Positions 6,339 through 61,717 of a stretch of 64,000 nt of DNA are shown in pieces. The translations under genes and the position numbers were made by a program. Where the stretch lies: assembly GCA_038087875.1 (NCBI GenBank), contig CM075993.1, positions 8,062,001 to 8,126,000 of the forward strand, written 5' to 3'. Origin of the DNA: Malacoraja senta. Its lineage: Eukaryota. The notes below the pieces were generated by a model. The model saw only the letters and a list, made by a program, of their open reading frames with translations. It had not been told where the DNA came from and did no database searches. The stretch's first letter is position 1. Each line of letters starts with the position of its first letter.

Positions 6339-7267
6339 TAAAACTAAATATTTCGCGTCCACCTGAAATAAAGTAGTCTTTATCTCGTCCAATAAATAAC
6401 CCATTTCTTCATACAATTAACAGGGTTAGGTGTAGCCTGATACAAAAAGAAAGTCAGCATAATGCAATGACCAGCTGGTTTGCAAACACCCAAGGTATCA
6501 TGTCAGGTCGCGGCTTTCAGTGTAACTCGGGACTACCGGAAATGCCACCGCTTGCACTAAGGTACATTGATCTTTAGCGCGAATAATGTTGCTTGTTTAT
6601 TTCTTCTCTGACTTCCCTGCACTTGCAAAGTTCAACAGGGGAGAGCATTTTAACGGAGCATTCCTACGGAAGGATTGCCGGACACGCTGCACATTTGTTT
6701 TCTGGCACAGATTTCGAATATTTCCAGCTGAATCTGAATGTTTTTGCAATGGGATCACCCCACAGTCTCCATTATGCCCGATGCCTGCTCTTCTCCCGCC
6801 CCTTAGAGCCACTCCAAGCCAAGCCCCCTAATCTCCACCCCCTCCCTGATCCCTCCCCTGTCCACACAAACACACAGTCCAGAACAGCAACTTTCCCCAT
6901 GGATCCACTAACCCCGCCCCAGCCTCGAGTCTCCTCCTCGGACGCCCTCAGCGCCAATCCCCGCTGGCCCTCGGCTCCTTTCTCTCCCCGGATGCCCCCC
7001 CCCCCCGGCCCCGATCGTCGGCTCGGCTGCTTGTCCGGACCCCCCTCTCCTCCCTCCTTTCCATCTCCTACCCGCCCCCTCCCCTCGCTTCCACAACAGC
7101 CTCCCGCCTCAGGCCCCTTGCTTGGCTTGATCTTCTTCCCAATCCCGCCTCCCCGGGCCCTCCCTCCTTCTTCCATCTCCCTCCCCTCCTCCTCCCTCCT
7201 CCCACCGCCCGCCCTCCCGCTCGGGGAGGCGCAATCCGGCGCCACCGATCGCCGGCCAGCCCCTTAC

Positions 7268-7780
7268 CCGCCCCCCCTCCCAAGCCACGACCGATCGGCC
7301 GCCGCGATGCGCTCCGCACGTTCCCCTTCACACACACACACACACACCGCCCCGGCCAAGCCGCCGCCGCCGCCTTCCCCACCGACCACGGCTCCGCCGC
7401 CCGCGCCTTTCGCAGCCCGAATGCGGAGCCGGGGGTGAGGGAGGGGGTGGGGGGCGATTGTTGTGCAGGCCGCGGGCTCGCTTGCTCCTTCGCTCCCTCT
7501 CACTCTCACACACACACACACACACACACACACGGAGCGGAGCGGGCAGCGCGGAGCCGCCCCCCCCCCCGCCCGCCCGCCCGGCCGGCACACAAACACC
7601 TCAGCCGCGCAGGCCTCCACTCACCGCTCCCGAGCCCCCGACAAAGATGCAGACTCCCGCTGCCCCTCCTTCCCTCAGGCGGAGAAATCCCGCGAACCCC
7701 CTCCAGCGGGGCCCGGGACGGGGGAGGGGGGGTAAAAAAAACCAAACAGCTCGGCGCTGAGGCCGCCGCTCCGTCCGCTC
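7268..7780 (-). other. Probable non-coding first exon of an unidentified gene running leftwards
   Basis: Donor CGG|GTAAGG on the minus strand (GT at 7267-7266) downstream of CCAAT/GC boxes in minus orientation; 5' boundary is a guess. Confidence 0.5.
7329..7532. repeat. Two (CA)n microsatellites (~7329-7347 and ~7507-7532)
   Basis: Directly visible. Confidence 0.95.
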
Positions 7781-8260
7781 ACTCCCCGCCTGTCAATCAC
7801 CGGCGGCGCCGCCGCGCAGGAAGTCCCGCCCTCCCCTCGCCTCCCCATTGGCCCCGGCCGGCGGCGGCTCGCATCCCCACTGGGCGGCGACCACGTCCAT
7901 CATCCGGCTACCGTCTGTAACCTGACAACCGCGCCCCGCCCACCCGAGCGACGTGATTGGCACCTGCCGGTACCGGATGTCCCGCCCTCCCTCAACACCC
8001 ATTGGCTGCTGTCTGAAGCCCCGCCCCCGGTGCGGCGCAAGGGGGCCGCTGCACTCCACCGGATGTCCCGCCCCTTCCGTGCGCCTATTGGTCTCGGTTT
8101 GAGATCCCGCCCCCCCGTGCCTGGCAGCCTAGTCGACCGCATGTCCCGCCCCTGCCATACGCTTATTGGCTGCCGTTGAGACCCGCCCACGTGGGGCTTC
8201 CGAGCAAGTGATTGGGGAAGCGCGCTGCCCATCAGGCGGCCCGGGCCCCGCCCCTTTTAT
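7780..8260 (-). promoter_or_regulatory. TATA-less promoter with clustered CCAAT, GC-box and ETS-like motifs
   Basis: ATTGG at 7847, 7956, 8001, 8087, 8165, 8211; about ten CCCGCC; CAGGAAGT/CCGGATGT at 7817, 7973, 8059. Confidence 0.8.
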
Positions 8261-11990: not shown

Positions 11991-12180
11991 AAGGTACACA
12001 AAAATGCTGGAGAAACTCAGCGGGTGCAGCAGCATCTATGGAGCGAAGGAAATAGGTAACGTTTCGGCCCGAAACTTTACCTATTTCCTTCGCTCCATAG
12101 ATGCTGCTGCACCCGCTGAGTTTCTCCAGCATTTTTGTGTACCTTTGATTTTCCAGCATCTGCAGTTCCTTCTTTAACAC
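11991..12180. mobile_element. Penelope-derived fold-back mini-element
   Basis: ~78-bp near-perfect inverted arms (11991-12145); 12-bp TSD TATATTTGGCAT (11979-11990, 12181-12192). Confidence 0.88.
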
Positions 12181-23390: not shown

Positions 23391-23935
23391 GGCTCAGTAT
23401 TGGGTATGCACGCATTGAGTTTTTGCCTTTACTGCGGAACATTTTAAAGTTTAGCTTATCGAATCATTATTTTGTTTAAGATCAGCTCTCCGTCGCTGTC
23501 TCTAGCTTTAATTTCAGTGCATCTCAATTGAATGAGGAAAGTGCTTACTAAACCAGCCTGGCACGGATTCAGCGCTGAGAATGCCATCCGTCACCCTTCC
23601 CCCGCCACTGCCCAATCTCACTGCCCTGTTTCTATTTACGGGAAGATGTCACCAACCACAATGTCCTTTGAAACCATGGCAATTAAAAATACGGAGACGT
23701 AAGGGAGTGCAGATGCTGGGATTTTATGCAGAAGTAAACAAACTGCTGGACCAACTCAACGTGGAGACTGCGCAATCCAACATGTTCAAGCTGGAAAAAC
23801 ACAGCTTAGCAACAAAACAACATTTGTCCCCTCCCTCTCCCTCTCCCCCTCCCTCTACATTCCTTCTTTTAGCTGCACTATTCTCAACTCTTCAATCCTT
23901 TTGTCTCACAGGTTGTGTCTATTCAACTCTGGGCT

Positions 23936-24062
23936 GGGGTGGGAGATTGCAACCTTCACTGTTTCGACGAATGCAATCAACCCGGCGTGCACAATCAAGT
24001 AAGATCAAATAGAACAAGTTGTCCTACAACTTTAGGCTGTGCACGCCATACACAAGAAGAAG
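23936..24062 (+). mobile_element. Short (AAG)n-tailed retroposon with HDV-like ribozyme head, 11-nt internal deletion
   Basis: 11-bp TSD AACTCTGGGCT (23925-23935, 24063-24073); homologous to 60985-61125. Confidence 0.88.
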
Positions 24063-24294
24063 AACTCTGGGCTTTGTCCAACCATCTGCCGTAACCCATC
24101 AAAAAACCCTCCTTACCTGCCTCTTACCTGCCAGGCTTTGTCCTGCCCCATCTCATTTCCTGCTGTCTTCACCCTTCCCCCCTAAAATCAGTGAAGAAGG
24201 ACCCTGACTCGAAACGTCGCCTATATTTGTTCTCCAGATGCTGCTTGATCCGCTGAGTTACTCCAGCAATCTTTGTCTTTATTTTGGAGGCATA

Positions 24295-29156: not shown

Positions 29157-29740
29157 CAATAGACAATAGACAATAGGTTCAGGAGTAGGCCATTCGGCCC
29201 TTCGAGCCAGCACCGCCATTCAATGTGATCATGGCTGATCTTCCTTCCTTCTCCACATATCCCCTGACTCCGCTATTTTTAAGAGCCCTATCTAGCTCTC
29301 TCTTGAAAGTATCCAGAGAACCTGCCTCCACCGCCCTCTGAGGCAGAGAATTCCAGACTCGCCACTCTCTGTGAGAAAAAGTGTTTCCTCGTCTCCGTTC
29401 TAAATGGCTTACTCCTTATTCTTAAACTGTGGCCCCTGGTTCTGGACTCCCCCAACATCGGGAACATGTTGTTAAAGAAGGAACTGCAGATGCTGGAAAA
29501 TCGAAGGTACACAAAAATGCTGGAGAAACTCAGCGGGTGCAGCAGCATCTATGGAGCGAAGGAAATAGGTAACGTTTCGGGTCTGAAGAAGGGTTTCGGC
29601 CCGAAACGTTACCTATTTCCTTCGCTCCATAGATGCTGCTGCACCCGCTGAGTTTCTCCAGCATTTTTGTGTACCATCGGGAACATGTTTCCTGCCTCTA
29701 GCGTGTCCAAGCCCTTAACAATCTTATATGTTTCAATGAG
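29157..29740 (-). mobile_element. CR1 LINE 3' fragment
   Basis: MFPMLGESRTRGHSLRI; interrupted at 29471-29674. Confidence 0.9.
29471..29674. mobile_element. Penelope-derived fold-back element with hammerhead motif (29583)
   Basis: 15-bp TSD CATCGGGAACATGTT (29456-29470, 29675-29689) inside CR1. Confidence 0.92.
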
Positions 29741-31469: not shown

Positions 31470-31650
31470 AAGAAGGAACTGCAGATGCTGGAAAATCGAA
31501 GGTAGACAAAAGTGCTGGAGAAACTCAGCGGGTGCAGCAGCATCTATGGAGCGAAGGAAATAGGCAACGTTTCGGGACGAAACGTTGCCTATTTCCTTCG
31601 CTCCATAGATGCTGCTGCACCCGCCGAGTTTCTCCAGCACTTTTGTCTAC
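31470..31650. mobile_element. Penelope-derived fold-back element
   Basis: Inverted arms centred ~31577; 17-18-bp TSD (C)ATTCATTGAATGCATTT. Confidence 0.9.
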
Positions 31651-59885: not shown

Positions 59886-60984
59886 GTGGACAGGTGATGG
59901 TTGGTCAGTGTGGACTCGGTGGGCCGAAGGGCCTGTTCCAACGCTGTATATCTAAACTAAACCGTGCCAATCTCTGTTGAGCAATGCAAGAAAACAAGGA
60001 ACTCTCCTCGATTCTACGCTACTCTCTTGTAACTCATGACAGCTGGTACAATTATTCACTACATGGAAGGTCGGGATTGTTACATCCAAAGTTTCTTGGC
60101 ATGGGATACTCCACGGATGAGTAATTCAAAGATTGCAGGAATGTTTTTTGTTACTTAAAATAATTCCTGTCAATTCAATGAAGAACCAATGTTTATTCAT
60201 GTACTTCCATGTCAACTCAATCCATCCATCCAATTCAAACAGAACGAGTCAATTGCAGAGGCAATTAAAATGAGAAAAATAGCAAGTAGGATTGAAAGTG
60301 CCTTGATAAAAATTATTAAGGTCGTTTGAAATGGGAAAAATGGGCTGAGAATTGTTCTGTAGATAAGTTCCTTTTTCATGGGGTTCTTCATGATATTGTG
60401 CATTGGAGTCGGAGTCGTACGGTACAAAAACAAGCCATTCGGCCCGTCTAGTCTACACTAACCATTAAACCACCCATTTAAACTAATCCTATACTCATAC
60501 CAATTTTTCTCTTTATATTCCAATCAACTCCCATTGATTCCTTTGACACGCCAGAAACAATTTATAATTACCAATTATCCTGCAAGTCTTTAGGATGTGG
60601 GAGAAGACAATAGACAATAGGTGCAAGAGTAGGCCATTCAGCCCTTTGAGCCAGCACCGCCATTCAATATGATCATGGCTGATCATCCCCAATCAGTACC
60701 CCGTTCCTGCCTTCTCGCCATATCCCCCTGACTCCGCTATCTTTAAGAGCCCGATCTAGCTCTCTCTTGAAAGCATCCAGAGAATTGGTCTCCACTGCCT
60801 TCTGAGGCAGAGAATTCCACAGATTAACAACTCTCTAGGTGAAAAAGTTTTTCTTTATCTCCGTTCTAAATGACTTACCCCTTATTCTTGAACTGTGGCC
60901 CCTGGTTCTGGACTCCCCCAACATCGGGAACATGTTTCCTGCCTCTAGCGTGTCCAAGCCCTTAATAATCTTATATGTTTCAAT

Positions 60985-61125
60985 CTTCTTCTTCTTGCGT
61001 ATGGCGTGCACAGCCTAAAGTTGTAGGACAACTTGTTCTACTTGATCTTATTTAATTGTGCACACCGGGTTGATTGCATTCGTCGAAACAGGGTGGACCA
61101 CGTGAAGGTTGCAATCTCCCACCCC
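60985..61125 (-). mobile_element. Short (AAG)n-tailed retroposon with intact HDV-like ribozyme head
   Basis: 11-bp TSD TATGTTTCAAT (60974-60984, 61127-61137); tail GCACGCCATACGC(AAG)n. Confidence 0.92.
61072..61125 (-). ncRNA. Minimal HDV/CPEB3-like self-cleaving ribozyme (54 nt, predicted)
   Basis: GGGGUGG GA GAUUGCA ACC UUCACGU GGU CCACCCU GU UUCGA CGAA UGCAAUC = P1, J1/2, P2, P3, L3, P3', P1', J1.1/4, mini-P4, J4/2, P2'. Confidence 0.88.
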
Positions 61126-61717
61126 TTATGTTTCAATAAGATTCCCTCTCATCCTTCTAAATTCCAGAGTATACAAGCCCAGCCACTCCATTCTATCAAT
61201 ATATGACAGTCCTGTCATCCCAGGAATTAACCTTGTGACTGTACGCTGCACTCCCTCAATAGCAAGAATGTCCTTCCTCAAATTTGAAGACCAAAACTTG
61301 CAGCACATGTAGGAAACCCACATGGAAGCTGCACGTGGACCCAGCACTGGAAGTTAGGATAGATGTGGGCTGAATGGCCTCGTTAGTTTAGTTTAGTTTA
61401 GAGGTACAACATGGAAGCGGGCACTTCAGCCCACAGAGTCCATGACGACCAGCGATGATCACCCATATACCAATTCCATTGCATACACTAGGGACAATTT
61501 ACAGCAGGCAATTAACCTACCCGGAGAAAACCCATGGAGCAAACATACAAACTGTGGAGACAGCCCCTATAATCAGGATTGAACCGGGGTCTCTATAAAC
61601 CATTTTCCCCCTTGCACTTCCGTCACGCCCCATTGATTCTCGTGCCGCCTCTCTTGTTCGTCAAGGTGTGGTTACCAGTAGAGTATTTCATTCCCTGGCT
61701 CTCTCCTTTTCACAACA

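Follow-up and report, generated by a model that had tools for sequence, protein, structure and literature searches.

How could a copy of a mobile element begin exactly at the predicted cleavage position of a ribozyme and yet lack part of the ribozyme core? This question is raised by one of exactly two copies of a short element in the window, the 64-kb stretch of DNA analysed here (Table 1). The preliminary description regarded copy A as an insertion separate from copy B, on the opposite strand, with a different 11-bp TSD and a start at the same G1, and the TSDs together with an empty site bore this out. A contig of organism E joins position 23924 to 24063 with no insert between, which fixes the ends of copy A and places its insertion after that split, or leaves it polymorphic at that split. 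When the flanks of copy B were joined, they formed a continuous host repeat in 55 matches among the sampled loci and the window, and the host LINE fragment around copy B is presumably CR1-like. Copy A had been described as starting directly after the TSD, and this holds, as G1 adjoins the TSD there; in copy B, one additional A precedes G1.

Alignment of the two copies revealed a few substitutions and a single 11-nt gap in copy A, with 1 nt of placement ambiguity. Apart from its gap, copy A carries only a single CpG change and a single subfamily marker. The gap, which had been described as the loss of P3' and P1', does have the reported size, but it also takes 2-3 nt of L3 and spares 1-2 nt of P1'. 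A repeated CAC had been named as the context of the deletion; however, a CAC slip would remove 9 nt, whereas the actual gap is 11 nt with 1 nt of microhomology. Copy A belongs to the main subfamily, and since 56 of 60 intact copies there have CCGCCC as P1', its parent probably had no second CAC. A CAC slip was therefore rejected as the likely cause on grounds of size and subfamily.

Table 1. Coordinates of copy A, copy B and their parts in the window
Feature	Position	Strand	Basis or remark
Copy A, left TSD (11 bp) AACTCTGGGCT	23925-23935	+	empty site in organism E
Copy A, whole insertion (main subfamily of the non-autonomous Vingi-type retroposon; 11 nt of the ribozyme core missing)	23936-24062	+	
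Copy A, part corresponding to LINE 5' end (element nt 1-77 minus deletion)	23936-24001	+	
Copy A, P1 5' strand	23936-23942	+	G1 is the predicted scissile position; partner strand lost
Copy A, P2 5' strand	23946-23951	+	pairs with 23972-23977
Copy A, P3 5' strand with the residual L3 and the junction of the deletion	23952-23960	+	junction after 23958 or 23959
Copy A, J4/2 and P2 3' strand	23968-23977	+	equivalent of catalytic C at 23968
Copy A, predicted 10-bp stem closing the 3' domain	23984-24047	+	23984-23993 with 24038-24047
Copy A, part corresponding to LINE 3' end, including (AAG)3 tail	24019-24062	+	
Copy A, (AAG)3 tail	24054-24062	+	
Copy A, right TSD AACTCTGGGCT	24063-24073	+	
Copy B, downstream TSD ATTGAAACATA	60974-60984	-	
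Copy B, intact 141-nt copy within host LINE fragment	60985-61125	-	
Copy B, complete predicted minimal HDV-like ribozyme	61073-61125	-	descriptor scan, Rfam
Copy B, segment absent from copy A	61101-61091	-	
Copy B, upstream TSD ATTGAAACATA	61127-61137	-	one additional A at 61126 precedes G1

The repeat landscape of the window resembles that of a cartilaginous fish. Elsewhere in the window, inverted back-to-back copies of a common repeat form long hairpins at 12011-12126, 29527-29654 and 31522-31630, which gave weak miRNA-family matches under gathering. Overlapping long open frames, the longest spanning 356 aa between stops, cluster at 6587-8179, possibly a GC-rich exon or a CpG island.

The family has at least 6,055 copies, counted by exact 10+10-nt anchors flanking the ribozyme core (3498 with full spacing, 495 with shorter spacing and 2062 CUAA variants). 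The element is about 138 nt long and non-autonomous, and its dispersed insertions carry 9-14-bp TSDs and a variable (AAG)n tail. The family is also present at high copy number in five other organisms (B-F; runs X1-X17), and runs X18-X21, guessed to be RNA, gave about one fifth of the family words. We reached its LINE partner through one 3'-divergent copy, which led to an APE fragment and from there to 21 genome matches. Four of five longer LINE stretches have both ends of the short element, and at L377, L379 and L380 both ends lie plainly on one decayed LINE of about 2.8-3 kb. The LINE is 91% identical to the element over nt 2-77 and 89-95% identical over nt 95/100-135, the two parts lying about 2.8 kb apart at the same loci, and element nt 78-94 fall outside both. 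These observations show that in the element the 5' end of a single-ORF APE-RT LINE is fused to the 3' end of that LINE, a bipartite structure of the SIDE/NARTc type; bipartite non-autonomous LINE derivatives are the kind discussed in the accessible parts of PMC5786205 and PMC3414825.

Pfam detected APE, RT and a faint zf-RVT in the partner LINE, and no RNase H match in these copies, which are decayed and were read in pieces. The best relatives are about 1000 aa long on contigs of about 3.2 kb, and no entry named Vingi occurs among the 120 of 336 matches listed. The first ATG of the frame that enters the APE domain lies within J4/2-P2' of the ribozyme (23971 in copy A). Vingi elements are described in the passages available of PMC13708176 as compact, with a single ORF containing APE and RT and without RNase H, and the partner LINE of about 3 kb is Vingi-type by this architecture. 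A short copy at L286/L287 (G000:C1:9845376 and 9847324) has a different middle and a 5' part reaching farther along the LINE; it probably arose from that LINE by a separate internal deletion. The 10-bp stem (element nt 59-68 with 113-122) joins LINE-5'-derived with LINE-3'-derived sequence, and a full-length LINE RNA may pair its own two ends through it.

We then examined the predicted ribozyme. In copy B, the descriptor scan found P1 (7 bp, opening with G1.U), P2 and P3 (3 bp) paired with no mismatch. L3 has 7 nt, P4 is vestigial, the catalytic C is located in J4/2, and P1' is followed by a G available for P1.1. The descriptor, which was composed from general knowledge and fitted with this sequence already known, gave 0 matches in five shuffled windows and found the fold only in copy B within the window. 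The intact ribozyme is only about 53 nt with P4 nearly absent, and we take its L3 and one-pair P1.1 to resemble those of the mammalian CPEB3 ribozyme. An Rfam search of the copy B stretch at E<=10 returned RF02682 as the sole match, at 15.9 bits (E 0.42), a score that does not reach the gathering score of that curated family (44), and the Rfam scan of the whole window matched no ribozyme family. The MFE structure of the 56-mer contains P1 and P3; by this kind of folding, which cannot represent a pseudoknot, copy B has z=-0.75.

The same fold was found in a second Vingi-type family (40-42% amino acid identity). There, P2 and P3 are fully paired with different letters at 4 of 4 loci, while P1 has one A.C mismatch at three of them and is truncated at one; within the element's own family, P1 changes on one side only. 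The markers of the intact subfamilies are at J1/2, in P1 (U-A to U.G) and at the base after the catalytic C, which are positions that the HDV fold tolerates. We predict that intact family members begin with a minimal HDV-like ribozyme. The second Vingi-type LINE (L372-L375, e.g. L372:1291-1364) is less decayed, with open frames of up to 589 aa, and its predicted ribozyme has a longer P4. In copy A, P1 and P3 cannot form according to alignment, folding and the descriptor scan, and the proposal that this copy is catalytically dead is supported at the level of the fold, since P3' and most of P1' are absent and the descriptor finds no match there.

The common 5' end of the two copies had been taken as a sign of cleavage, but by itself it shows only that both are full length. 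The family as a whole is more informative. Among the distinct intact copies, 62 of 67 start no more than 1 nt away from G1; the deleted copies do so in 57 of 64 cases, and in 60 of 64 when 2 nt are allowed. Among copies with a detected TSD, it adjoins G1 in 49 of 57 intact and 41 of 49 deleted ones. Of 37 distinct copies sampled by anchors in the 3' part, three begin at nt 6 or later, and no shared sequence upstream of G1 was seen. The family-wide start at G1, together with the fold of the second family, is stronger support for cleavage than the coincidence of two copies. T precedes G1 in 108 of 173 sampled copies. This position mostly coincides with the end of the TSD, whose first letter tends to be A or G, a pattern that suggests a nicking preference on both strands.

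Copy A had been proposed as a natural negative control, but it is not a rarity, being one of about 340 copies (scaled, about 337; 8.4%) with a core deletion of 4-20 nt, and 18 copies match its junction exactly. We examined the first 100 entries in the list of 495 short copies; they represent 94 distinct copies, of which 15 Helitron passengers and one misaligned copy (L219) were left out. Of the 78 free copies that remained, 64 have a deletion of at least 4 nt, and these are of 28 kinds. Deletions of 9-12 nt occur in 48 of the 78 and those of 1-3 nt in 14, which inverts the spectrum that genomic indels usually show, where short ones are commoner; we count this excess in favour of loss at integration. 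P3' and the initial half of P1' are lost most often, and 62 of 64 copies lack at least 2 nt of these two strands. In a 3' control window, deletions amount to 5.9%, or to 1.4% without one 10-nt slip (100 of 223 listed), and the core, at 8.4%, is a moderate hotspot. Among the 100 short copies listed for the 3' part, 52 owe their length to that slip, which lies at a perfect 8-nt direct repeat (element nt 70-79) and affects about 4.5% of copies overall.

The deletions are unevenly distributed among subfamilies. SF2 accounts for none of 64 deleted and 14 of 76 intact copies (p=1e-4), with one SF2-like copy present among the 18 with the exact junction, and in the CUAA subfamilies, whose CpG decay is 11-13%, deletions occur in 4 of 100 listed copies. 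The deletion-prone subfamily has G in P1', whereas the subfamily with A in P1' is not prone. When we counted pairs of copies sharing a non-CpG mutation, there were 13 of 400 among copies with the same deletion, 93 of 3878 among those with different deletions and 65 of 3321 among intact copies. This is no excess of shared derived mutations among same-deletion copies, hence no sign of a propagated deleted subfamily. Each common deletion is found on several marker backgrounds, in proportions roughly as in intact copies. Judged from the sequences, the core deletions are recurrent independent losses without a dead subfamily. The same deletions on mixed backgrounds without shared mutations point to loss after the parent RNA was made, in agreement with the preliminary description, which placed the deletion after transcription or insertion. 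It had also held that many copies sharing the deletion and keeping the 5' end would speak against this. Such copies do exist, the 18 mentioned above, but they are no refutation: the proper test is monophyly, which the deleted copies fail, and the loss-after-transcription reading stands. A G-to-C marker, 32 of whose 53 carriers are deleted, appeared to define a mobile deleted subfamily, but it proved to be one Helitron-borne insertion and was not counted.

As for the time of the loss, an initial unmatched comparison, whose intact copies came solely from the first 36 Mb of C1, made the deleted copies look older (p=0.018). With intact copies sampled across C1, the divergence difference was no longer significant (2.95% for deleted and 2.49% for 50 position-matched intact copies, p=0.26), and CpG decay was 29-30% versus 21-23% (p=0.09-0.22). 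All divergence comparisons lean toward older deleted copies in a test of low power, the counts being under-dispersed. CpG decay of SF2 was similar (24% versus 22%), and its invariant-site divergence was left out, being inflated by its own markers. At L099, the deletion is common to organism B, with a flank that differs at 16 of 324 letters and a contig that extends 6-7 nt beyond the junction, all gaps being placed in the flank. This deletion is therefore about as old as the insertion burst. Organisms E and F have the L099 insertion, with contigs that end at or before the junction, and the flank contig of organism D ends earlier; the contig of organism E departs 1-2 nt before the junction with 4 letters unshown, which is compatible with an intact copy or another deletion.

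A Helitron-like element (L151, L153, L154, L156-L173 and others) carries a 3'-truncated retroposon followed by a C-rich minisatellite. From its 5' TC and its 3' hairpin with CTAG, we take the carrier to be a non-autonomous Helitron-like element. None of the 23 passengers sampled has an intact ribozyme: 20 are deleted, and three are near-identical with a P1 mismatch. This single insertion is thus undeleted in 3 of 23 passengers and has two different 10-nt deletions in most others, which means that such deletions arise in DNA too. Helitrons copy through single-stranded DNA, and slippage on a single-stranded template would account for the losses both at integration and during Helitron copying.

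Based on these observations, we lean toward loss at integration, but several other explanations have to be weighed. The element and its ribozyme could be the same but lose sequence only afterwards, in the chromosome, where replication slippage or end-joining would act on a CpG-rich degenerate 10-bp repeat. The Helitron-borne lineage speaks for this, as one of its two deleted states is the commonest class among free copies, and so do the microhomology at the deletions (mean 1.37 nt against 0.93 nt at random), the slightly greater divergence of deleted copies in every comparison and the rarer deletions in the less-decayed CUAA subfamilies, as time-dependence predicts. However, SF2 is equally decayed and almost without deletions, and sizes of 9, 11, 12, 15, 16, 19 and 20 nt mismatch a single 10-bp period. 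Sharing of the deletion by two species at L099, the one locus tested, also argues against slow decay, as does copy A, which is barely mutated besides its gap and is absent from organism E. Single-stranded copying of Helitrons likewise fits slippage on a single strand rather than slow decay. We regard later loss in the chromosome as unlikely on balance, although it is a serious competitor.

Two explanations concern the parent RNA instead. The uniform 5' end could be the start of an internal promoter like Pr77 in L1Tc, with a secondary or inactive ribozyme and with deleted copies that still serve as templates. The start at G1 fits cleavage and would fit a promoter at +1 equally well, so that it does not discriminate, and cleavage is here a prediction only; in L1Tc, according to the passages available of PMC3383444, a single stretch of 77 nt acts as promoter and as ribozyme alike, and an internal promoter starting at +1 would yield the same picture of 5' ends. 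Against this, the fold is kept with different letters in the second family, the intact-subfamily markers fall at positions that the fold tolerates, and no deleted subfamily has expanded though about one tenth of copies are deleted, which makes this explanation improbable. Even less credible is descent from a small number of deleted masters, with intact copies cleaving the masters' RNA in trans at G1, because there are at least 28 kinds of deletion, the common kinds lie on several backgrounds with no excess of shared mutations, and the sole clade of deleted copies found travelled as Helitron cargo.

We suggest, with a probability of roughly 0.57 for the joint reading, that copy A stems from a parent RNA which an intact ribozyme had cleaved at G1, and that the 11 nt were skipped while the DNA was written. 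Read-through transcripts would self-cleave at G1, and the LINE protein would prime on the 3' end of the RNA. The polymerase, on a single-stranded template in first- or second-strand synthesis, may then stall in the 3' half of P1' and re-anneal through 1-3 nt in L3/P3, in about one tenth of main-subfamily insertions. The outcome would be a full-length, ribozyme-dead copy that founds no subfamily. More tentatively, the ribozyme might trip its own RT, with about one tenth of insertions of the U.G-P1 subfamily jumping from P1' to L3, and 5' HDV-like ribozymes might be general in Vingi. If true, the genome would preserve hundreds of natural traces left by an RT on its way across a double pseudoknot.

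Copy A alone is ordinary, while the family is a predicted animal example of a SIDE-type element headed by a very small HDV-like fold, and two Vingi-type families are predicted to have 5' ribozymes. The recurring deleted copies are ready negative controls. Vingi-1 UTRs serve RNA gene-writing platforms (PMC13708176, in the passages available), where template fidelity would be affected if RNA structure caused skipping within the 5' UTR. In titles, abstracts and searchable passages, with subscription papers and Repbase largely outside the search, we found no paper on Vingi ribozymes or on an HDV-like ribozyme in shark or skate, and no description of ribozyme-core deletions in genomic copies. The accessible parts of PMC5786205, PMC13708176, PMC3414825, PMC6765202, PMC3774820 and PMC3383444 likewise contained neither the hotspot nor Vingi ribozymes.

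Several known systems are similar to the element in part. The HDV-like ribozyme of F. prausnitzii (RF02682) aligns with it in the P1/P3/L3 arrangement and the catalytic C, but the score is far under gathering, and the ribozyme described here has a much shorter P4 and is part of a mobile element. Derivatives of the Vingi-1_EE type likewise arise by internal deletion and retain the two termini of a compact APE-RT element with one ORF and no RNase H, a likeness drawn from the description in the passages of PMC5786205. In T. cruzi, L1Tc and its short derivative NARTc, of the ingi clade, are again a LINE and its short partner with a common HDV-like ribozyme at the 5' end, which cleaves at +1, but their ribozyme is 77 nt long and doubles as a demonstrated promoter (PMC3383444 and PMC6765202, in the parts available). 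Ingi has RNase H according to the accessible text of PMC13708176, whereas the LINE described here has no RNase H match and resides in an animal host. A parallel in design is found in the R2 SIDEs of Drosophila, which, as described in the passages available of PMC3414825, are short and non-autonomous, combine a 5' HDV-like ribozyme with a LINE 3' end and begin at the cleavage site. Those elements are specific for 28S rDNA, reach 529 bp in D. willistoni, use the R2/R1 machinery and have a ribozyme with in vitro cleavage, whereas the element described here is about 138 nt long, is dispersed in at least 6,055 copies and has an APE-type partner and a predicted ribozyme.
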